DNA of 62,718 nucleotides, filler included, from an uncultured Thermoplasmatales archaeon (GTDB lineage Archaea > Thermoplasmatota > E2 > DHVEG-1), in NCBI GenBank assembly GCA_964517155.1. It is 8 parts of 8 records of this genome, joined end to end, with 100 filler letters (N's around TTAATTAATTAA, not from the genome) between each part and the next. Parts side by side here need not be neighbours in the genome. Positions count along the whole stretch, not along the records: positions 6,351 to 23,248 come from CAZFAZ010000063.1; 7 more parts are not named here. One strand, given 5' to 3'. Position numbers and translations under genes: made by a program. Below the pieces are notes generated by a model. That model saw only the letters and a program-made list of their open reading frames with translations, did not search any database and was not told the DNA's origin. This document shows, in pieces, positions 6,251-54,385 of this stretch (position 1 is the stretch's first letter; each line of letters opens with the position of its first letter).

Positions 6251-6350
6251 NNNNNNNNNNNNNNNNNNNNNNNNNNNNNNNNNNNNNNNNNNNNTTAATT
6301 AATTAANNNNNNNNNNNNNNNNNNNNNNNNNNNNNNNNNNNNNNNNNNNN
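6251..6350. other. Artificial contig linker (same linker at 23249-23348, 37180-37279, 41529-41628, 46156-46255, 50887-50986, 54386-54485)
   Basis: N44-TTAATTAATTAA-N44, giving stops in all six frames. Confidence 0.99.
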
Positions 6351-9300
6351 TCATTATGAACAAGAGACTTTGCCATATCACCCCAAACCACATTATAAGT
6401 ATGATAAGGCACAACCTCAAAATTAAAAGTAGGGACACGTTCATATATCATATCAATAGATGTTATGATATTATCACCGAAAACATCACCAACCTGTAAT
6501 TCACCTGCCGTGATCTGAGTTCCATTGACAAAAATAGGATGATTAGGAGTAATTTCTAAATCATCGTTAAGAACCAGATAATAATCAGTCATCTCAGAAG
6601 GATTATGATAAAATACATAACTTACAATTCCAGTTTTCCATTCCTCTGAATCAATATCATAAGAAACAACAGTATCACCAACAACAATATCTTCAATGTT
6701 TTTAGTGGAACCATCGGCCATTTCAATCTGAGTACCTGCAAGGAAACAGGCATCTCCCCATTTCCTCCGATTTTCTGCTGCTTCTGTTATTCTATCTAGA
6801 AGATCAACTAACCAAGCAGGGAGAGAATAACCTTTATCTTTTAAATGTTGGGCAAAGTCAGAAAGAGTCATTCCATTTATTGTTAAATCACCAATGTCAA
6901 CAAGATCCCCAAAGTTTTCACCTTTATCCTGCAACCAGTTTATAAGTTCATTTAATGTATTAAATACTGGGTAATCAGCGTCAGGGTCAACATCTAAACC
7001 TAACAAGTCTATAATAAACTGACCGTAGTTTCCATTATTCAGTGCATTAATATTTATATGTACATCTAGTTCCACTTCTGTTTCTCCTCTTTGAACTGTA
7101 AGACCTATCTCAAATGAATCACCAAGAATATCATATAAAAGAGGGTTCTCTGATTTATCAATATCAAATTCTAATCCAAATCTACCTTGTACACCTTCTT
7201 TGTTTGAATTAAAACTCAGCCTATAACCATCTTCATAACGATCTAATGATATGCTTCCATCTGTTCTAGGATCTAGCTTAAGTTCATATACATGAAGAGT
7301 AAGACCTTTTAAATCAGTAGCAATATCACCTTCATAAATAAGACCATCTGAAGAAAAACTTAAACCAAATATAGTATCATAACCAGTTTCACTTTGTATA
7401 GTCCAATCCTCAGGATTCAACCAACCGTTTTCCATGTTATCCAAAATACTATCAACGCCAACTATGAAATCTGTAAAATGTAAATCACCATCAAACTGGT
7501 TAATATTTCCAGTTAAAAGACCACCAAGTGCAGAAAATGTAAAACTATCCCAGTTTGAACCCAATTGATTATTTAAATAAATGTCACCTGTGCTAGTATC
7601 AACATAAAATTCAAACATTCCGCTACCGTGGAAATTCTCAATATTATAATAACCTTCAGTACTGCCAATCATTGCTAATAAAGACAATAATTGATCAACT
7701 TTTTCAGAATCAATATTATCTAACAAACCAACAATAATATCAATAATTTCATCAGGATTAACACCAAACTGATTGCAAATAACATCAAAATTTGGTAACT
7801 CATCTCTAAACCAATCAGCATCAATATCACTAAAATCACTGAAATCATCTGTTATATCTTTTAAAGCATCATACCAAAGATAAAACTGATCAAAACCCCA
7901 TGTAATATCAAGATTACCATCAGATATTTCACCATCAATACCAAAATCAATAGTCCAACCCTCCTCAGTAGTCTTTACTTCAAAAGTGATTTCAGCATCA
8001 ACAGAAGCAGTACCTCTAAAATAAGAAGTTCCAACAGTTATATCTACTTCAACAGTACCATTAACAACATGTTTTGGAGGAGCGCCATTTTCACCAGGGA
8101 TGAATCTGTAGGTACCATCAAAACCAAGCTCAATTGTTTTTATATGTATCTCAAAACCGGCAATGTTAATGATTAAATCTTCTAAACTTAACGAAACTCC
8201 ACCTTCAGCCTCTACAGTACCATCAGGATAAACATTGATCGAACCGGAAAAATCAAATATAAAACTTTTACAAGACACCTCAACAAAACCACCAAATACA
8301 CTAAGATAAAAATCATCTATAGTAAACATTGCATCTCCAACATATGTAATAGCAGAGTTTCCATCATCGTCTAGTATTATCTTACATTCTCCACCCAAAG
8401 AAAACACTACGGATTCAATTTTTAAACTCAAAACCTCTGATGAATCAGAAAAACCATTAAGAGGATGACACGAAGAGCTGCTAATAGCAAAAGTTATATC
8501 CTCAAGTACAAGAGATGCCTCTGCACTTATAAATATCTCTATATTACCCTCTTCAGATAAAGTTGAAAAAATATTAAGATCTAAATCAAGATTTATAGCA
8601 TCAATAGAGCTTGAAAAATCTAAAAGCTGATCGTGTGGACCATCAACACGATAATTTGACACTCCAAACTCAAAACCATTAATCTCTGCATTTCCATGTA
8701 ATTCAAGATTTAAACCACTCAGCGAAAGAACTCCATCATAATCAATACTTAATTCACCTTCTATTTTGTCAATCGAAAACCAGATTTCAAGTGGATCGGG
8801 ATATAAAAATGGATAACCCTCTGGTTTATCATCCTTTTGTTTAAAATAAAAATTGATATCTTCGCATTTAAGGTTAAAGTCTCCTGAAAATTCGACTTTA
8901 TATAAATTAGGCGTCCAAAGTTGAAAATCACCATTAATCTCTATTCTTCCTATTTCGATTTCTAATATATTATCTGAATCTACTTTTTTAAGTCTTAAAT
9001 TATTGATCTGAAACTCTGGTGAACCATATGCATACGCACTTATACCACTTATACCTAAATTAAAATTTCCATCTTTAAAAGAAATATGTATACTTATAGT
9101 AGCCCCAATAATCATATTCCAGTCAACTTTAATTTCATCCATCTCAACAAGCCATCCATTAAATTCTCCCGAAGTATTGGTCTGATGTATATCATAAATA
9201 TGAACCTTTGCAAAAAAAACTAAAGAGCAAAATAATTCAAGATCTATTTCCCCAGTAGTTAAATTAATATTAACTATAGCAAAACACTGCCCCCCTCCTG

Positions 9301-11770
9301 TCGCACGTATACCAATTCTAATATATATACCTGCTACATTAAATAAGAGGCCTAACCCAGTACTACCACCAACAGCAAACGTACAATAAATACGTAAATT
9401 ATCTCCATCTAAGAAACCCGAAAATTCACCTGAAACATCAAATGTTAGACCCATTCCCATTACTGTTAGACGACCGCCAGCTCCAAAATAACCATTAAAT
9501 CTCCCACTAGCAATATCAATTGAAATATTAACATTACCACTCATATGTAAAGTAATTCCACCTACAGGACTTGCACTAATGACAAGATCTGCATTAATTG
9601 GAGCTAGACTTATATCCCACGTTCCATTATAAACCTCCGACTCAAGTATTCCATCGATATAAAAATAGTTAAACCATATAGCAGGGCTTGAAGGCAAATC
9701 TTCCGAAGATGAACCCCTCTCAGGCATAATACCTATACCAAAATCAGTAAATTGTGCAGTGCCATCTATTTTAAACCAGATCCTATCAGTATCATATTCT
9801 AAAGTCCATTCTGCAAATAAAAAGATACTTCCGATATATCCTAAAAAATCATTATAGCTTATACTTATATCAGCAATTGCAATACCTCTATCCTTAGATG
9901 CAAAAGCTTCGACTAACATTGCAGTTTCATTGCCCGTTTCATCAACAGTCCAATTGATATTAAGGTAACAGATACCATTTGTCGCCGAGTAAATAGAGCC
10001 AACATCTACAGATATATAAGAATCCAAAATTTTACCTACAAAATAAAGACCAGTAGCTTTTGTCTTTGAACCCTGATACCTAAATACTGCGTTGTCACCT
10101 GATTTTTCAACAATAATATGAGTATCACTATGAAGCTCAAGGCTGCTAAAACCAAGATTAATCCAGTTATCATCTATACCAATAGCTAACCCATAAATCT
10201 TTGATAGACCGCCCTTGGATTCCAGCTTAAAAAAACCCAAGTTTTTATTCCATGATATCTCAACAGTATGATCAAGGCCACCCATATAAAAATCACCTTT
10301 AACAGCAACAACATTATCATCTATTTCAACAACAGTATCAATGCTTATGAACATACTACCGCCAATAATTATATGACCTTCTTCAGCAGTAATATAACTA
10401 TCAGAATCAATTTCTAGCATAAACTCAAGACTAGTATCAACCTGAACACTATCAACAAAAATTCCAAAATCACCAAAACCAAGATACAAACCCTCAATCA
10501 GAATATCAACTGAACTGACAAGGCAAAATACAACACCAGCATCCTCTGTAAACTCAAAAACAGCAGAACTACGAAAACTAATAAGATCTGCAGCTATTAA
10601 AATACTATCAAACTTTAAACTAAAATCATAAACATCAATCACTGACTCCCCTATAAAATTTCCATTTGCAGAAATACCGGATTCATCCCAAGAAACACCC
10701 AGGTTTTCAGCCTCACCAATCATCGAAAAATCAAAAGTACCACTAACAGAGATATTAGCACCTAAAATATCCTCAAGGTTAACATCAAAGGATAAATCTT
10801 CCAAAGCAATAACACCCTCAAAACTAAAATCCCCTTCAAAACCCTGATGCTCAAGCAAGATGTAACCATTGGTATCAACTACAAGAGAACTAGTAACAAA
10901 AATAATGTTATTATTGATATTAAGATAAAGGTTACTAAACTCAAAATAACCATCACCTGTAATTTCCAGATAACCCAAGGTTTTATTCCAAGTAATCTCA
11001 ACAAAACCTGTATCCGGGCCGATAAAAACATGAGAACTAATAGTCACAATAGTACCATTTACATCCATAGTAAAATCAAGATCCATACTACCCTGACCAA
11101 GAAACAAAAAACTACCAGCAGTGGGAACTATAATTATATCAGGATCATCCTCTTCTTCATCCTCAGAAAGGATGCCCATAGAAGAACCACATGAACCACA
11201 TAACTCACAGCCACTATCCCCCTCATCAGAAGTTACCCCCTCTGATCGTACAAACCTACTAAAAAAAGGTAAATTTGCCAATATAGGAAAACGATCAACA
11301 AACTTATTTATAAAATCAGATAAAAAACTAAACATAAAACCATTTTCAGAATCTTTATTTCTAAGGCTAAAATAACTACTACTACGAACTAAATCATCAT
11401 CAACAACATCTGAATCATCATTTTTAGTATATCTAGAGTAATCCACCTCATCAGGTCTTTTCAAAAAAGGAAAAACAGGCTTATCCACAATCTCATCGGA
11501 GTCTTCTTCCGATTCATTCTCATCTAAATCAGAAAGATTACTTGAAACCCTTTCACCATTATGCTCTGCATTAAAATTACGAACTACAGCATTATCATAA
11601 TTAGAAACATCTTCATCATGACCCTGCTGAGAATCTAAAACATCAACATTACGGCCAATAACTGTTGCAAAAGATGCAAAAACAAGCAAAAAAACAACAA
11701 AGATACTAACTAGATTCTTAATGTTCGTTTGTCTAAAAACAGCTTTTTTAATATTCATTTTTTTTTGCAT
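6351..11770 (-). CDS. Giant secreted acidic beta-rich protein with C-terminal Hint domain (3' truncated)
   Basis: N-terminal signal peptide; Hint at 6748-6353: CFLAGT..MADG..K.IEDI.VGD.V, TPNHP, FNFEV..YHTY, LVHN. Confidence 0.88.
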
Positions 11771-28585: not shown

Positions 28586-31528
28586 ATGCTTATAAACAAA
28601 AAAACCCAGATATGGGCAATAACTTTCGCCCTCTTATTCAGTTTATTATCACTTAATTTTAGTAATAATATAAAAGCAGAAGAGCCTTATGACTCAGAAT
28701 CAATTATGGAATTAATCGATATATTTAGCTCTATGATTGATTTCGAAGACGAGTTAGGACCACATCCATTTAGACAAGTTGGAATATGGCAAAGCAACAA
28801 ATCAATGACTATTCAAGAAGATATAGAGTTTGAACTGTATTTCTCAGCACCACTTTTTACACAAATTCAACTATTGGAATTAATAGATTATCAAGATACT
28901 TTAAAAATAGATGTTTATCATATAAATTCACAAGGTTTAAAAAATCGTATTCAAAATGGTAATGCAACAATAAAATTAGAACCAGAAACACTTGGAGATT
29001 ATGTCCAAAAATTCAACGTTAAATTAGAAGACATTCAGGTAAGTATAGATGAAAACGAATATCTAGCATTTGTAATTGAAATTGAACAATCCAAAAAACC
29101 AGTAAATAGTTTTGTAGAAAAAAGATTTGACACAAAAATTATTGGAAGACTAGAAAAAATTTCAAATATGCTAAGAAAAAGTACAGATCCAAATCTTATA
29201 GAAATATCAGATATTATTGATATATTACTAGAAAATCTAACTTATGTAGATATCGGTGGAGCAGAAGTAGCAGCCCTTGCGAATGTTTTATGTTCCAGTG
29301 CTTTTTATTATGGATCAAGCAGTCATCCAGCATCTATTAAATTTAAAAATGATGAAGCAGAAGAAATAACAGTATACTTTCAAGGCCAATATTCAGATTT
29401 TCAGTATGAATCATATTATTTAACAGAGATGTTTCTTTTTGAAAGAATAGTAAATGAAACAAAACCTACATCAAGTACAAAGTTTGCTTGGCCACCTATA
29501 CTTGCTGGATTAGAGGACTTTGAATCATTTGAAAATATAAGTGAAGACAGCGATATATTTAACTGGTTTGCAATATGGGCATTGTACACGCTCGGCAAAC
29601 CTATTGATGAACTTGATAAAAACAAAGTCACATATTATCTTGCTGAAGATGCAAAATTAACAACTGATAAACCAACTGGTTCAAACACCATAAAACAAAG
29701 CCTTTCAAAAGAACCTTTGTCTTGGAGTATTTCAGGTTTTGAAAGAAACAAGATGCTTACAAATGCAACTGCTCATCTAAATATTCATTATTCAAAGATT
29801 TTAATTCTTGGTAAAGTAAAAATAGTTGCTTCTTTAAAAATAAATGATGAAGTAATTGCAACTGATGAACAAGAATTAGATAGAACAAATATACTTGAGT
29901 TTTTACAGAAAGGACCAGATATAGAAACCAAGTTTACTTTTGATATTCAAGGAAATACCAAAGAAATATGTTATAACGATAATCTTAGTCTTGAAGTAGC
30001 CTTTGTTAAAAAACCAATTATGGGGTTGTTAAGACCAGTTAAGATACTATACGGCTCAAATGATTATCCTTCAAAAATTGTTTTAACATTAGAAGAAACA
30101 GATAATATAAAAATCGGCGAGTTGGAGGATAAAGTAGTATATTCTGGTGGAAGTGCACATTATATAGTAAATGTTACTAGTAAACATACAGATGAAGTAA
30201 AGATTACAGCTGAGGCAAAAGAAAAAACAGGAAACTGGAATATAGAAGTTTATCCAAAGGAACTTCAAATTACTTCAGGAAGTACTCAAAAAGTTCATAT
30301 CTTTATAAATTCAACCGCAGTTGATGATTCAGCATATGATGTAGATGAAATATACTTCTTTGTAAATGCAACAGGTAAAACCGGTTTTGATACAAATATT
30401 TCATATGTTTATGTTTCGCAAGATTCAGTTAAATACGATTTTGAAGTAAGTAATATTCCTGATGAAATAAAAATTAAACATGGTTCATCTGAAACATTTA
30501 CAATTACTATCATAAACAAAAACAAAGGATATATTTCTGATAAATATACAATAAATGCTAAAACTGAGCATGGCTTTAACGTAGACGTTAATTTATCCTC
30601 TGAAAAAGAAATAACTGTTTACAATCCTGATTCTGATAAAAATGAAGAGATAACAGTAAATATAACTGTTTATGCACCCTGGTATACAAATATTGCATCT
30701 GAGAAATTTACAATAGATATACTATCAGATAAAAGTTTTGATCAGCAAGATGAATTAGAAAAAACATTTATTGTTACAGTTAAAGTTACTACACCAAACA
30801 TCTTTGAAGGTATTTACAGAGCATTTGAATCTGCAGCAGGAAAAATAGGACTTACGGGCATATACGCGGGATGGATTTTAATTTCAGCAGTATTACTATT
30901 GCTTATAATAATCTGTATAATTGTAATATTACTTAAAAAAAGAAGATTTGCAGATATAATATGCACTGAAAGAATTAAAGAAATTACACCTGATGAAACT
31001 GCAAAATATGAAATATTACTTAAAAATCCATACAGATATGATCTTACATATAACATAACTGCAAAAACTGAAAATGATACAGAAGGCTTTGATGTTTCCG
31101 TTGATGCAACAGAATTAGCTTTACAATCTGGAGAAACAAAAGTTATAAACCTATTAGTTAAACCAAATGATAATGTTAAAAAAGATGATTGGGCAGAAGT
31201 AATAATCAGTGTAAAGCCTAGTGATAAGAACAAAGTAGCAGATATATCAACAGTTACAACTATCAAAAATGGTCAAGTAGATGTTAAATTATCTGGCGTG
31301 TTTCATTGGCCAAGAACATTTAAAAAAGGAGACAGAGTTGAAACATCATTTAAGGTTTGGAATTATGGCAATGTATCAACCGGTAAGATTAGCATTATTT
31401 TCTTTGTAAATGGCCAGGAAAAAAATAAAGTAGAAGATATTATTATACCTCGTGGAGGGCATGCTGATATTGAGATACCTTGGATTGCAGAAGCAGGAAA
31501 AAACCAGGTATATATAGTAGTTAATTAA
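28586..31528 (+). CDS. Large membrane-anchored protein with Ig-like/CARDB-like repeats
   Basis: Signal peptide, multiple beta-sandwich repeats, TM near residue 770, C-terminal N.G...F.VNG..W.A.AG CARDB-like domain. Confidence 0.8.
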   Translation: MLINKKTQIWAITFALLFSLLSLNFSNNIKAEEPYDSESIMELIDIFSSMIDFEDELGPHPFRQVGIWQSNKSMTIQEDIEFELYFSAPLFTQIQLLELIDYQDTLKIDVYHINSQGLKNRIQNGNATIKLEPETLGDYVQKFNVKLEDIQVSIDENEYLAFVIEIEQSKKPVNSFVEKRFDTKIIGRLEKISNMLRKSTDPNLIEISDIIDILLENLTYVDIGGAEVAALANVLCSSAFYYGSSSHPASIKFKNDEAEEITVYFQGQYSDFQYESYYLTEMFLFERIVNETKPTSSTKFAWPPILAGLEDFESFENISEDSDIFNWFAIWALYTLGKPIDELDKNKVTYYLAEDAKLTTDKPTGSNTIKQSLSKEPLSWSISGFERNKMLTNATAHLNIHYSKILILGKVKIVASLKINDEVIATDEQELDRTNILEFLQKGPDIETKFTFDIQGNTKEICYNDNLSLEVAFVKKPIMGLLRPVKILYGSNDYPSKIVLTLEETDNIKIGELEDKVVYSGGSAHYIVNVTSKHTDEVKITAEAKEKTGNWNIEVYPKELQITSGSTQKVHIFINSTAVDDSAYDVDEIYFFVNATGKTGFDTNISYVYVSQDSVKYDFEVSNIPDEIKIKHGSSETFTITIINKNKGYISDKYTINAKTEHGFNVDVNLSSEKEITVYNPDSDKNEEITVNITVYAPWYTNIASEKFTIDILSDKSFDQQDELEKTFIVTVKVTTPNIFEGIYRAFESAAGKIGLTGIYAGWILISAVLLLLIIICIIVILLKKRRFADIICTERIKEITPDETAKYEILLKNPYRYDLTYNITAKTENDTEGFDVSVDATELALQSGETKVINLLVKPNDNVKKDDWAEVIISVKPSDKNKVADISTVTTIKNGQVDVKLSGVFHWPRTFKKGDRVETSFKVWNYGNVSTGKISIIFFVNGQEKNKVEDIIIPRGGHADIEIPWIAEAGKNQVYIVVN

Positions 31529-38342: not shown

Positions 38343-39851
38343 TTAAATGCTTGCGCTTTGGCTTTGTTGCTGTGATTGGCTAGAGCTGCTTGAACTGGAT
38401 GAGCTGCTTGAACTGGATGACCCTGTTGTGCCATATGAGCTTGTACCGTATGACATGGTATTGGTTTGCATAGGTATGCCGAATATTTCTGCCTGAGCTT
38501 TTCCAAGTAGTCCTAGGTTGCTACCACCTTCATCATCACAATAAATGATAGTACAGAGTACAGATTTTGCCATATCATAGAGCCCAGCAAGGACCATTGA
38601 ACCACCTGTACTAAGTCTAAATCCATTTCTTAATGCACTTATCAATGCAGGTCCTATCGATGCAGCTGCTGTTGCAACTACGGGTAACCATGCTGGAGCT
38701 GTAATAATACCTAGGCCAACTGCAACAACTAGTAAATCCAATTGTATGTTGCTAGGTAGGTTGCTCCAAGCGTCAGCACCCATATTTAGTAGAGGGAAAT
38801 CCCAATCTGATATAATGTCCCATGTTTCACCAGCGATATATCCAGCTGCTTGAAGAGCGGCTAACACCGCATTTAAGGTCATTGAGTCGATTTCGGCTTC
38901 ACAACTAGTTCTTTCTGCATTTGATGCTGATCTTATTCCATCGACACATTCTGTTGAACCTATGCTAGTTGGACTGCCAGCAGAAGTAGCTGTACTGGTT
39001 GCAGATCCTCTTGCCATTACTGGGTGTGTAAAATCTGGTATTGGTATTGCTTCTAAGGACTCTCCATATTTATTATCCGTTATGTTTGTTGGTATATTAT
39101 TGCTAATTTCTGAAACACTGCTTATTCCTCTTTGTTCTATTCTGCTTTTTATTACTCGTACTTGTTCAACATCTTCTCTTAGATATGCTGCAATTAATTC
39201 AAATCCGTCTTTTTCTTTTATGCTTCTTGCAGTTAATGCCATTTGTTCAAATTGACTAGCTGAATTTATTCTTACAGATATTTGTTGATCTGCGCTTAAT
39301 GCTCTTGTTTCTTGTATTGTAGGATAAGTTTCAACTAATCCCACTAAAAATGCTGCCATGTTCTTTTTCTCTTCGTCTGTTTTAAAAACTGCGTCAAAAG
39401 ACAAATCTACTGATTGTTGTACTCCACTGGAAATCATTCTAACTTCTTGACGAAGTAGGGATACTTCTTGTTTGAGTGCTATTACTTCTTGAGTTAAAAC
39501 TTTTAACAATGAAACGACTTCATCTTCTTCTGATAATGAATCTGAAGATACAGCTGCTGTTAGAGTTGAGGCGATTTCTGCGCTTCTCTCCTCGGTTTTT
39601 TGAATTTCTTCTTCTACGGCTGCTCTAAGTTTTTCTTGTTCTTCTACTGCTCGTGTTATACTACATAATACACACTCTGTTTCTTCCTGTTCAGAACTTT
39701 GTTCTATTTCTAATCCTAATTCTTTTGCTCGTTTCTCTTTTGTCATTACGTCATTTGCTAAAACTGTACTCATACTTGTTCCTATAAACATTGCAACAAC
39801 AAAAATTGTTGTTATTACTAGCATCTTATTTTTCATTATTTTTTTTCTCAT
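38343..39851 (-). CDS. Secreted 502-aa protein: coiled coil, hydrophobic G/A-rich C-terminal domain, Ser/Gln tail
   Basis: Signal peptide, GGTGAGG SD, heptad LTQEVIALKQEVSLLRQEV, hydrophobic hairpin. Confidence 0.8.
   Translation of the reverse strand: MRKKIMKNKMLVITTIFVVAMFIGTSMSTVLANDVMTKEKRAKELGLEIEQSSEQEETECVLCSITRAVEEQEKLRAAVEEEIQKTEERSAEIASTLTAAVSSDSLSEEDEVVSLLKVLTQEVIALKQEVSLLRQEVRMISSGVQQSVDLSFDAVFKTDEEKKNMAAFLVGLVETYPTIQETRALSADQQISVRINSASQFEQMALTARSIKEKDGFELIAAYLREDVEQVRVIKSRIEQRGISSVSEISNNIPTNITDNKYGESLEAIPIPDFTHPVMARGSATSTATSAGSPTSIGSTECVDGIRSASNAERTSCEAEIDSMTLNAVLAALQAAGYIAGETWDIISDWDFPLLNMGADAWSNLPSNIQLDLLVVAVGLGIITAPAWLPVVATAAASIGPALISALRNGFRLSTGGSMVLAGLYDMAKSVLCTIIYCDDEGGSNLGLLGKAQAEIFGIPMQTNTMSYGTSSYGTTGSSSSSSSSSSSSSSQSQQQSQSASI
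38383..38418. repeat. 18-nt tandem duplication encoding poly-Ser
   Basis: GAGCTGCTTGAACTGGAT x2. Confidence 0.9.
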
Positions 39852-43225: not shown

Positions 43226-44362
43226 TTATTTTTCAATAAGTCTGTCAACTGCTATTTTCAGCTCTTGATATTCTGATTCTAGCTGCTCAAATTGATTTTT
43301 AAGTGCAAAATATTTGTCTTTGTAATAGGCATCTGTTTCTTTTACCATGTTGTTTTCTAGTTTTAATTCTTTTTGCAATGGTGAAGATTCAAGTATTTTT
43401 TCATAAAAAGTGTTTTTAATGTTTAAATCAGTTTTATTTCTGTTTTTTCCTATTTTTTGAATGATGTTTTCTTTTCCAAGCAAGCCAAAGGATGTATTAT
43501 CTAGGCGTTTAATTAAATCTTTACATTTATTTATATTTATATCAAGGATGTTTACTTTTCTTCTATGTTTAAGCACATCTTCTGAAAATTCTCTGCGGTC
43601 TATATCTTTGATAAGTCTTTTTTCAGTAAGATCCATTAAATCATCTTTAAGCGCAAGTCTTTGACGCTCTAAAACACCTAGTCTATTTGTAAGTAGTTCT
43701 CGAAGGGATTTTGCATCATCGATATAGTTTACCATTTCATCATCATGCTTTACAAAAATATCGTATAACTCTTCATTTGAAACCTCATCATCTGATATTA
43801 ATGCAGTAAGCTCAGGTGATATTTTATCTTTAAATTCTAGTTTTTCAATTATTTTAACTGAGTTTGTATACCATCCAGGTATGAAAATAACACCCTCGTT
43901 TGTATAATCAAACTGCTCTAGTGGAAAACTAAGGACAGCATCAGATTTTTCGTCTTTTATTTTAAAACCAACAATATTTTTGTCTTTATCATAAATTGTA
44001 TCAAAAACAAAACCTAGTTTTTCTCCAGTATCCTCAAGATATACAGGTTTGTTTTTCAAATCTTTTTTAATAAATGTTTTCTTTTTTTCTTTTGAAAACT
44101 CTTTTTTCTCAATTGGTTCTTGAGTATTAATTGTTTCTTTTTGAAAATCTTCTATGTCAACCTCATTTAAAACAGCGGTTTGAGCTATATCTGTTTTTAC
44201 TTGTTGTTTTTTATCTATTTTTTCTTTATTTTTACGGCCTAAACCTAGTTTTCTTTTCTTTTTTACAGTAAGATGTTTTTGATTATTATAAACCTCTTTT
44301 GAGCTCAAATTATTTTTTATTTGTTTTTTTGAACCCTTATCTTTTTTCTTAAATAGAGGCAT
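43226..44362 (-). CDS. CdvA-like protein (PRC-barrel + helical coiled coil)
   Basis: K.VY..DTGE.LG.V.D..D PRC motif followed by IFIPGW and about 125 aa helical region ending RLD. Confidence 0.7.
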   Translation of the reverse strand: MPLFKKKDKGSKKQIKNNLSSKEVYNNQKHLTVKKKRKLGLGRKNKEKIDKKQQVKTDIAQTAVLNEVDIEDFQKETINTQEPIEKKEFSKEKKKTFIKKDLKNKPVYLEDTGEKLGFVFDTIYDKDKNIVGFKIKDEKSDAVLSFPLEQFDYTNEGVIFIPGWYTNSVKIIEKLEFKDKISPELTALISDDEVSNEELYDIFVKHDDEMVNYIDDAKSLRELLTNRLGVLERQRLALKDDLMDLTEKRLIKDIDRREFSEDVLKHRRKVNILDININKCKDLIKRLDNTSFGLLGKENIIQKIGKNRNKTDLNIKNTFYEKILESSPLQKELKLENNMVKETDAYYKDKYFALKNQFEQLESEYQELKIAVDRLIEK

Positions 44363-44388
44363 CCTTATCCAACTCCTGCTGATAATCT

Positions 44389-46131
44389 TTACAGATCACA
44401 GCTTCCCTCCAATGAAAGTAATGGGTCTTTCTGTTCTTTAACATTTCGGATGAAACGCGTAGTTGCCCAGGAGATAGCTGCGAATGGTACTAACAATAAA
44501 GATAATATCAGGATATAAACACCTATAGCTCCTATTAATAATGATAATATTTGCATCATATCTGTTTGCTGCTCAAATATTATAAGATTTAATTGTATCA
44601 GTGTATATACTATGCTTGTAATCATAATTATAAATGTAGTTAAAACAATTTTTTTTCTTAATTTACAGCTGATAAAATATGCTATAATTCCTCCTAAAAG
44701 TATAGCTACTAGCATAGCTGAGAAAGGATCATTTATAATGAAAAGAATTGGAAGTAGCACCAATGATGCTATAATTGGTTTTCCATAGTTTGTAAAAAAT
44801 GTTTCTTTTCCTTCTGATTTTGTATAATTTATATTAAGAATCCAGCCCATGCTGTTGCTTACTGTTTTTTTGATTTTGCCTTTTAGTGAGATTACTTTTT
44901 TTACATGTTTTTTCTTAATTATTGTTTTTGAATAATGTCGCCATGATCTATCAATTGCCAGTGTACTTAGGTTATCTGATATAAAAGTTATTCCAATTAA
45001 AAGTAAAAGCGTTAGTGTTGTAAGTATTGCAGCTGAAAATAAATCTAGTAAATATACTGTTGCTTCTGCATTCCACGCAAGCAGGTTTTGTATAAAAGAA
45101 TCAGAAAATAAAAGCCAGAATGGTGAAGAATAAACCATTATTTTTCCGGTATATGTTCCATTAGCAGTTATATTTGAGGCATAGGCTTTTAATTTCATTG
45201 AATTAACTTTGCCTCTACTTAAATTAAAAACATTTTTTGAAACATGTTCATTTATTTCACCTTGTGCAAAAACTATTCCTTTGACAGGCATTGTACTAGG
45301 GTTTATTATCTCCAGGTTTTTTGGAAATGATTCAGTACCTGTTCTTATCCTTCCAAAGTTAATAGCTACTGCTTTTTCGCTTTCAGCATTTATTCCAACA
45401 GATGCTGTTTGTGAATCAAAGGCAAAAGCATGTATAACTGTTAAAAAAACAATATATATTACAAGAAATGAAATTGCTGTTTTTTTAAGGTTAAGTGGCT
45501 TACGACCAAATATATAAAGCCTTATTTTTTCTTTGAAAGTTTTTGCATGCTCAGGTATTATAAACATGAGTGCTACAAGGATTACAGCAGATATTGTAAG
45601 CGGTGCAAAAACTCCAAGATAACTTATTGATTCTTTTGCACTTGTTGGCTGTGATACAGCTTCGAGTCCTTGGTTTATCCAAAGGCCTATTATTCCAACA
45701 AATGGTACTTTTAGAGGTGTTTGTCCTATTGATATTACTTTTCCCATTAATGCATCTTGTCTTATGTATGGCTCTGGTATATGTGGTCCTGCCTGATCTG
45801 TAAAATCGTTTTTATCTCCTTTTGTCTCAAGTAAAATATTTCCGCTGCGAGATTGTGTAATGTCTGATACTCTATGAACTACTATTTTTTGATCTGGCCA
45901 ACGTATATGGCTTTTAAAGACAATTATATCTCCAACTTTTATATCTTCTATTCTTGTAGGTGTCCATGCAACGACATCTCCTTCAAAAAGAGTAGGCGTC
46001 ATTGAATCAGATGTAACAAGATTTATTGGGAATGGTGTTCCAGACCATACTGATAGGAAACGCGCTATTATCAGAAATAAAGCTGCAATAAATAATAGGT
46101 TACCTACCAGTGATTTAACACTTAGTTTAAT
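44389..46131 (-). CDS. Signal peptidase I (SEC11/SipW-type) fused to beta-sandwich and multi-TM domains
   Basis: TSDSMTP, GDIIVF, VHRV, TKGD.N...D; catalytic Ser lies upstream of the track's ATG 46002, so true start is near 46131-46138. Confidence 0.88.
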   Translation of the reverse strand: MKLSVKSLVGNLLFIAALFLIIARFLSVWSGTPFPINLVTSDSMTPTLFEGDVVAWTPTRIEDIKVGDIIVFKSHIRWPDQKIVVHRVSDITQSRSGNILLETKGDKNDFTDQAGPHIPEPYIRQDALMGKVISIGQTPLKVPFVGIIGLWINQGLEAVSQPTSAKESISYLGVFAPLTISAVILVALMFIIPEHAKTFKEKIRLYIFGRKPLNLKKTAISFLVIYIVFLTVIHAFAFDSQTASVGINAESEKAVAINFGRIRTGTESFPKNLEIINPSTMPVKGIVFAQGEINEHVSKNVFNLSRGKVNSMKLKAYASNITANGTYTGKIMVYSSPFWLLFSDSFIQNLLAWNAEATVYLLDLFSAAILTTLTLLLLIGITFISDNLSTLAIDRSWRHYSKTIIKKKHVKKVISLKGKIKKTVSNSMGWILNINYTKSEGKETFFTNYGKPIIASLVLLPILFIINDPFSAMLVAILLGGIIAYFISCKLRKKIVLTTFIIMITSIVYTLIQLNLIIFEQQTDMMQILSLLIGAIGVYILILSLLLVPFAAISWATTRFIRNVKEQKDPLLSLEGSCDL

Positions 46132-54079: not shown

Positions 54080-54385
54080 TTAGTTATACCCGCCTATTTT
54101 TAGACTTGGGTCACCAATCAAAAGCCATTGTTGTACATTTTTTACAATGATTGCATCACCATATGTAGAATTATCAGACCAATCTATTGAAAAGTTCTGC
54201 AGAAATCTATTTATTGTACCTGTCCAGCAATCTCCAAGTATCTGTGTATTGCTTTGTTTGTATTCTTCAAAAAAATGTATATCAAGCCATTCGCATCCTC
54301 CTCGTTTACTATCTATATCTGAGGATTCATAGCTATATGCTGTTGCAGCAATAGTTGCGATACTTCCACCAAAAGGATTTGCAAC
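54080..54385 (-). CDS. 3' end of C25 (gingipain-like) cysteine peptidase
   Basis: Not in ORF track; reads VANPFGGSIATIAAT...ILGDCW...WLLIGDPSLKIGGYN*. Confidence 0.85.
   Translation of the reverse strand, partial: VANPFGGSIATIAATAYSYESSDIDSKRGGCEWLDIHFFEEYKQSNTQILGDCWTGTINRFLQNFSIDWSDNSTYGDAIIVKNVQQWLLIGDPSLKIGGYN

Follow-up and report, generated by a model that had tools for sequence, protein, structure and literature searches.

A predicted self-cleaving Hint domain between two conserved halves of a giant archaeal protein

What follows a self-cleaving domain that stands at the very edge of an assembled contig? The question is raised by a 62,718-nucleotide stretch of DNA from an uncultured Thermoplasmatales archaeon (GenBank assembly GCA_964517155.1), here called the window, which consists of eight contigs joined by spacers of the form N44-TTAATTAATTAA-N44. 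Where the second contig begins, at position 6351, a giant open reading frame (ORF) on the minus strand is cut immediately after a Hint domain. The original prediction took this ORF for a giant secreted archaeal protein with a cleavage-only Hint, whose C-terminal payload, possibly a polymorphic toxin, had been lost at the contig break. We located the continuation of the protein in public data and used it to weigh that proposal against others. The anatomy of the protein, its conservation and the identity of its continuation are direct observations.

The Hint domain and its continuation

The Hint domain occupies the last 132 codons of the truncated ORF (Table 1). The truncated protein scored 29.1 bits against the Pfam family PT-HINT, for which the cut-off is 27.7, and its full-length counterpart, P0002, scored 48.1 bits (E 1.8e-12). 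The closest solved structure by sequence, PDB 2lwy, is described as a 'bacterial intein-like domain'; it aligned with the Hint from end to end (E 1.1e-7) and likewise ends in LVHN. With 866 library proteins matching at E <= 1e-10, the match is, by these scores, not due to chance. The profile match, the N-terminal nucleophile and the TxxH motif place the domain in the Hint superfamily, and the C-terminal His-Asn and the lack of Cys, Ser or Thr at the +1 position are those of a type A bacterial intein-like (BIL) domain. One trait of that type, location in a hypervariable region of a non-conserved protein, was not found: both flanks are conserved, except for a short, indel-prone linker. The complete Hint of the original prediction was thereby confirmed, as was its non-nucleophilic +1 residue, which is indicated by the bases GA in the window and is Asp in P0002.

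A search of a 5.8-billion-protein collection identified P0002, a protein of 2870 residues encoded on a 19,614-bp contig. It is identical (100%) to the window ORF over all 1806 residues and has the same start (ATG at 11770), such that the truncated ORF represents its N-terminal 63%. In P0002, LVHN is followed by an Asp, consistent with the GA in the window, and then by 1063 more residues. The junction is also spanned by P0156, which is encoded on a 956-bp contig, matches P0002 residues 1774-1895 with 98% identity and continues with the same DGHHDQVEE... sequence. Both public sequences that cross the junction (2/2) therefore share one continuation, which speaks against the proposed variation of the tip within the population. 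As for the lost payload, the ORF is indeed cut at the contig break, but what was cut off is recovered in P0002 and is a conserved, non-toxin tail. Three sequences from contigs of ~1 kb, P0155, P0156 and P0157, are 93-100% identical to parts of this tail; the end of P0156 is apparently frame-shifted with respect to P0002, and P0155 contains a divergent internal stretch. These fragments suggest that other assemblies, of low coverage or prone to error, contain the gene as well.

The tail (aa 1807-2870, 1064 residues) matched no toxin family in Pfam at E <= 0.01. Its parts are listed in Table 1 and include two Hint-like modules, both predicted from their altered motifs to be catalytically dead. 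In a word-indexed search, P0003 was the sole protein to share the whole tail (39% identity over 96% of it); an exhaustive search showed that P0011 has it as well. Compared by segment with P0003 and P0011, P0002 is 25-47% identical in the three parts of the body and 33-51% in the tail domains, with 74% and 65% identity, respectively, in the Hint. The tail is as well conserved as the body, contrary to what a polymorphic tip would show. Indels among the orthologues are most frequent in the ~44-residue linker directly after HN. The Hint is the most conserved segment, which argues for selection on its activity; that the neighbouring decayed copies lack exactly the catalytic residues argues that it is the chemistry that is under selection.

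To place these residues in a wider context, we surveyed 153 proteins, comprising P0002-P0006 (of which P0004 and P0005 are near-duplicates) and 148 library representatives, which yielded 101 full-length Hints. All 101 start with Cys and 99/101 end with HN. The +1 residue was Ala in 33, Asp in 13, Lys in 9, Ser or Thr in 7, Pro in 6, Trp in 1 and Cys in 0; that is, 94/101 Hints have a non-nucleophile at this position. Among the three orthologues, it is Asp in P0002 and Ala and Glu in the other two. By sequence, these Hints conform to the type A BIL pattern given in the relevant passages of PMC4031507, namely a His-Asn end and no +1 nucleophile.

Predicted processing and its alternatives

We consider it probable that the gene encodes a self-processing surface protein, an acidic, exported chain of 2870 residues in which a catalytically complete Hint of the type A BIL/PT-HINT kind acts mainly by cleavage and precedes a non-toxin tail. 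Export, chemistry and products are predicted here by analogy with known type A BILs. The protein would be exported through a single N-terminal signal or anchor segment. Cys1675, aided by Thr1741 and His1744, would turn the Ala1674-Cys1675 peptide bond into a thioester, and Asn1806, aided by His1805, would cyclise and break the Asn1806-Asp1807 bond. Because Asp1807 lacks a nucleophilic side chain, the canonical branched splicing intermediate would not be able to form there. The main outcome would be cleavage on both sides of the Hint, freeing the Hint and setting the ~1630-residue, beta-rich body apart from the conserved tail. A minor ligated product could arise by aminolysis. According to the passages of PMC4031507 that treat them, type A BILs mostly cleave but are also able to join their flanks, in which case the thioester is attacked by the amine released at the C-terminal cut; a passage of PMC7765530 states to the contrary that they cleave but cannot ligate. 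By this analogy, ligation would be a minor or uncertain route. The term 'cleavage-only' was accordingly right in that cleavage is mostly to be expected, but too strong in view of the ligation reported in PMC4031507.

The predicted domain resembles known systems to different extents. Like the type A BIL of PDB 2lwy, it has ~130 residues without an endonuclease insert, the same catalytic motifs (Cys1, TxxH and a C-terminal His-Asn) and a non-nucleophilic +1 residue, and it lies in a secreted, non-housekeeping host. It differs in that the host is archaeal, whereas reviews, in the parts that concern them, describe BILs in bacterial proteins; in that the host is conserved on both sides of the Hint rather than hypervariable; in the dead Hint copies within the same chain; and in that the activity of the window Hint is a prediction. 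Canonical class 1 mini-inteins share the fold, Cys1, TxxH and HN. By contrast, the +1 residue here is Asp rather than Cys, Ser or Thr, the host is a secreted giant and not an essential protein with a conserved housekeeping-enzyme site into which an intein would be inserted, and relatives carry tandem copies on linkers of 1-40 residues. With Hedgehog proteins, whose Hog domains are not known to have a terminal Asn step, the protein shares a thioester-forming Hint behind a secreted N-terminal domain. Unlike in Hog domains, HN is conserved (99/101), and a sterol-recognition region such as that described for Hog domains was not seen; the domain is not of the Hog type.

Splicing might dominate over cleavage if the amine produced by Asn cyclisation attacked the N-terminal thioester, such that the Hint, or an array of Hints, was excised and body and tail were left as one chain. 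The ligation without a +1 nucleophile reported in PMC4031507, the predominance of small +1 residues (Ala in 33/101) and the occurrence of tandem active-type Hints with linkers as short as 1-7 residues, easier to explain if all are removed, are consistent with this. However, cleavage products dominate for type A BILs in the account of PMC4031507, PMC7765530 denies them ligation altogether, and the +1 position is highly variable, including Pro, Lys and Trp. We therefore consider dominant splicing unlikely. In a Hedgehog-like transfer, a membrane lipid, a glycan or another protein would attack the Cys1675 thioester and thereby tether the body to a wall-less cell surface. Thermoplasmata is a class that includes wall-less members, and the relatives come from metagenome-assembled genomes (MAGs) labelled Thermoplasmatales or Thermoplasmata; a thioester belongs to the chemistry of Hint domains in any case, and the protein has no C-terminal anchor, its sole hydrophobic segment being N-terminal. 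Transfer is nevertheless conjectural throughout and, in our view, very unlikely: it could proceed without the C-terminal Asn, whereas 99/101 domains retain HN; no region resembling one for sterol recognition is evident; and in tandem arrays it would tether short linkers only. A related conjecture, to which we attach very little credence, is that the Hints are coupling devices, the Cys1 thioester reacting with a lipid, with a glycan or with a neighbour's free amino end, such that giants would be tethered or chained head to tail, with the RFPxL motifs described below aligning the partners and tandem Hints providing several reactive sites. That the Hint is a structural relic without chemistry deserves hardly any weight. 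The two dead Hint-like modules downstream in the same protein demonstrate that such modules are tolerated and conserved in the giant family, but in the Hint itself all catalytic motifs are intact and the segment is the most conserved of all, whereas decay is visible in the dead copies, in which Cys1 is replaced by Gly or lost, TPNH has become GPEQ or TYDQ, and HN is lost.

The polymorphic toxin of the original prediction, in which the Hint would free a variable C-terminal toxin, an immunity gene would lie downstream and the contig would break at a strain-variable tip, is to us scarcely credible. It has in its favour that the best Pfam family is 'Pretoxin HINT', that the protein is giant and secreted, that the contig breaks just 2 nt past HN and that, in the orthologues, indels are most frequent in the linker after HN. 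Like bacterial PT-HINT toxins (PF07591), the protein passes the family's cut-off and has a predicted self-cleaving Hint within a long secreted chain. In polymorphic toxins, as the relevant part of PMC3482391 has it, the Hint stands just before a short C-terminal toxin domain. Here, instead of a tip of 100-300 residues, 1064 residues follow it, with no toxin family found and 33-51% conservation across P0002, P0003 and P0011, and Pfam scans of the truncated and the full protein detected no RHS, filamentous-haemagglutinin or similar stalk repeats. Among the best 42 by rank of the 148 Hint proteins, no toxin family (0/42) reached E <= 1e-5, and the domains that accompany the Hints were PKD, Big, CARDB, CarboxypepD_reg, Laminin_G_3, TSP_3, M28 peptidase and DUF7289. 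The same tools did detect a true combination of Hint and nuclease toxin in a bacterial locus used as a positive control (L023: PT-HINT 526-661, then GH-E nuclease 688-755, then a stop). In 6/6 Hint-bearing giant relatives with a known 3' flank (P0003, L004:3788, P0005, L002:3317, L002:13757 and L005:10049), the next gene encodes at least 555 residues and there is no small ORF; these relatives have no immunity-like neighbour. Neither a Hint directly before a toxin domain nor a variable tip on a conserved body was found. Given the same continuation in both junction-crossing sequences, its PKD-like and other non-toxin parts and the lack of an immunity-like neighbour in relatives, the toxin proposal is largely refuted on the terms of the original prediction itself, and the other possibility raised there, an autoprocessed surface protein, fits the anatomy and is the best reading.

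Several points weigh against that preferred reading. Cleavage, its rate and its products are all deduced by analogy, and the balance of cleavage and ligation cannot be read from the sequence. The signal peptide was judged by hydropathy alone. Many relatives carry 2-7 tandem Hints, and a single cut does not account for such arrays. The evidence on downstream genes stems from the flanks of relatives and not from that of the window gene itself. Finally, modelling of the tail with AlphaFold (P0002 aa 1807-2870, 4 sequences) reached a mean predicted local distance difference test score (pLDDT) of 35.3, too low to be of use. With so poor a model, aa 1807-2135 may still adopt a novel fold with enzymatic or toxic activity.

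Body, RFPxL motif and relatives

The N-terminus of the protein combines a Lys-rich start with a hydrophobic stretch at aa ~16-42, the sole strongly hydrophobic one in the full 2870 residues according to Kyte-Doolittle analysis, and is therefore predicted to be a signal peptide or signal anchor. Alignment revealed a hydrophobic N-terminal segment in the relatives too. Together with the length of P0002 and the archaeal genes of the window, this agrees with the description of a giant secreted archaeal protein. The acidic, beta-rich body was likewise upheld by the excess of acidic residues (238 Asp and Glu vs 64 Lys and Arg) and by structure prediction. The pI of the whole protein is ~4.05. The basic patch ENRRKW is present, but relatives do not share it; a functional role was dropped for want of conservation.

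The acidic body (aa 221-1674) contained no Pfam family above its cut-off. Its best-conserved part, aa 205-720, was modelled with AlphaFold from an alignment of 11 family sequences, which yielded an all-beta structure with strands of up to 23 residues (mean pLDDT 76.7; predicted template modelling score 0.66). A Foldseek search of the PDB with this model returned no convincing fold: the top template modelling (TM) score, 0.21, was that of the lipid-transfer protein LPD-3 (probability 0.60), and LptD, which had the best E-value, had a TM score of 0.10. A family profile matched PDB sequences solely through its Hint parts, and the ESM Atlas gave no usable match for the body or for the tail of the orthologue. 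Parts of the aa 205-720 module also occur in Hint-less giants of related MAGs (L001:16406 and L002:22055).

Just after the signal segment lies a helical motif of ~40 residues, ..F..F...[RK]FPxL.....F..hh, of which P0002 has a second copy near its C-terminus (aa 2672-2698). A profile built from the N-terminal RFPxL copies alone recovered C-terminal copies in three proteins (Table 1). The motif is also present in giants of related MAGs, at aa 91-130 of L001:16406-19861 and at aa 79-100 and 1974-2007 of L002:22055-28600, and at the N-terminus of the product of the gene 3' of P0003. Through these two copies, the halves might stay together after cleavage, or one molecule might be joined to another.

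When window residues 607-1806 were compared exhaustively with 1.84 billion representatives by HMMER, 3597 matches were obtained at E <= 0.001. Body and Hint were both matched in only ~8 clusters: P0004, P0007, P0003, P0010, P0011, P0016, P0037 and P0132. A scan of genome contigs yielded 36 loci, the best seven in MAGs labelled Thermoplasmatales or Thermoplasmata; the window's own genome was absent from the results. The body family takes two forms: one active-type Hint followed by a long tail with dead Hints (P0002, P0003 and P0011), or 2-4 tandem active-type Hints followed by a short tail (P0004/P0005, P0007, P0010 and ORFs in L002, L003 and L005). More generally, 56/152 Hint proteins have at least two Hint-like stretches, with inter-Hint linkers of 1-291 residues. 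Production of cyclic peptides from these linkers was considered and dropped, given the range of their lengths and the lack of a conserved product. In P0014, P0038, P0044, P0116 and P0009, whole domains of 150-290 residues have a Hint on either side, and self-cleavage would excise an internal domain.

The same type of Hint also occurs inside several different giant secreted proteins of these MAGs, in company with C25 or S8 peptidase, PKD, BACON, Ig and CARDB domains (Table 1). L002 and L004, both on contig CAZQXW010000006.1, contain a one-strand run of giant genes encoding 3320, 2782 and 955 and then 3478, 2694 and 2181 residues. Four of these genes encode Hints, two of them with C25 peptidase domains as well, and the run looks like a giant-surface-protein island.

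Outside this family, we observed alpha-2-macroglobulins in which a Hint separates the bait-region and A2M domains (P0006 and L010:6250-11589). Similar ORFs, candidates for the same architecture by their equal length and Hint position, were found in L012, L013, L014, L016, L018 and L019, which belong to MAGs of Saccharibacteria, Doudnabacteria and Collierbacteria and to one whose label is simply 'bacterium'. It is unusual for a protease trap to carry a self-cleaving domain at its bait site.

Layout of the window and significance

The window, with a G+C content of ~31%, elsewhere encodes archaeal RadA, Hjc resolvase, MtrA/MtrH, Pcc1 and an S13/S15-type ribosomal protein, as well as a synthetase with tRNA_bind_4 and class II core domains that we take to be O-phosphoseryl-tRNA synthetase. 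The neighbouring genes have no counterparts in loci L001-L007, and there is therefore no synteny to supply the 3' flank of the giant gene. The tail is not encoded anywhere else in the window (tblastn), and the contig end (6351-6750) has no 15-mer in common with the rest of it. As a conjecture, the indel-prone 44-residue linker after HN could have troubled the assembler and caused the contig break. At another contig break, the window contains the C-terminal end of a C25 peptidase domain (54080-54385, minus strand); a further large surface-protein gene may have been cut by the assembly there. Long ORFs of 980, 502, 378 and 537 residues at 28586-31528 (+), 38343-39851 (-) and 43226-46002 (-) matched no Pfam family at E <= 1e-5.

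Table 1. Features of the giant ORF, its continuation in P0002 and selected Hint-bearing relatives
Feature	Position in window	Strand	Residues	Remarks
Artificial spacer (N44, TTAATTAATTAA, N44)	6251..6350	.		Marks the break between contigs 1 and 2
Giant ORF, 3'-truncated at contig edge	6351..11770	-	1806 codons + 2 nt	ATG at 11770; no stop
First two bases (GA) of codon 1807	6351..6352	-	1807	Asp in P0002
Complete Hint, type A BIL/PT-HINT kind	6353..6748	-	1675-1806	Last 132 codons
HN at Hint end	6353..6358	-		LVHN is aa 1803-1806; bases GA (6352-6351) next
TPNH	6539..6550	-	1741-1744
Cys1, in CFLAGT	6746..6748	-	1675
Acidic body	6749..11110	-	221-1674	238 D+E vs 64 K+R
ENRRKW	6758..6775	-	1666-1671	Present
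All-beta module	9611..11158	-	205-720	Best-conserved body part; very long antiparallel strands in the model
RFPxL motif (..FLSDFINKFVDRFPILANLPFFSRFV..)	11240..11359	-	138-177	Just after signal segment
Lys-rich start and hydrophobic segment	11645..11770	-	1-42	Predicted signal peptide or signal anchor (hydropathy)
Tail part 1 (P0002)			~1851-2050	Region without assigned fold
Tail part 2 (P0002)			~2136-2405	Hint-like module; no Cys1; GPEQ for TPNH; end ..YFADGILVGG for ..VHN
Tail part 3 (P0002)			2425-2605	Hint-like module; start GFTKGTMIKMADGT (Gly for Cys1); TYDQ; end NYFADDILVIG
Tail part 4 (P0002)			2672-2698	Helix-forming motif, IIENFILKLVEKFPVLEKISFIQKII
Tail part 5 (P0002)				Acidic linker
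Tail part 6 (P0002)				Weak PKD-like end; aligns with sub-threshold PKD_4 match in P0003
C-terminal RFPxL copy, P0002				Independent E-value 0.012
C-terminal RFPxL copy, L002:22055				Independent E-value 6.9e-5
C-terminal RFPxL copy, P0008				Independent E-value 0.0028
L004:3788-13750			3320 aa	C25 peptidase, then PKD, BACON and Ig-like domains; Hint 2073-2205
L002:3317-13753			3478 aa	Sister of L004:3788-13750; Hint 2230-2362
L007:4021-17301			>4427 aa	Subtilase; Hint 972-1102
L006:3581-7627			1349 aa	Open at 3' end; CARDB; two Hints
P0006				Bait-region domain 684-823; Hint 864-992; A2M 1008-1096
L010 (Peregrinibacteria MAG)				Bait-region domain 844-980; Hint 1032-1150; A2M 1165-1222

Literature searches that covered tandem or degenerate Hints, surface proteins of archaea with Hints and giant proteins of Thermoplasmata found no description of this giant family. 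Reviews, as far as the passages on BIL-type domains go, treat these as a bacterial feature of variable proteins. The protein adds a new member, from an archaeon, to the BIL/PT-HINT kind and belongs to a small giant-surface-protein family of Thermoplasmata-like archaea. The analysis removes a tempting but wrong lead, that of an archaeal polymorphic toxin, and traces the 'lost' C-terminus to public data. It reveals a Hint of predicted active BIL type fixed between two conserved halves, accompanied by dead copies or, in the sister proteins, by further active-type Hints in tandem; the predicted cleavage sites are exact. The finding is moderately interesting, chiefly on account of the dead but conserved Hints, the tandem arrays of the sister proteins and the unassigned beta fold. 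Conserved, often tandem Hints in archaeal surface giants raise the question of what purpose repeated self-cleavage would serve on the cell surface.

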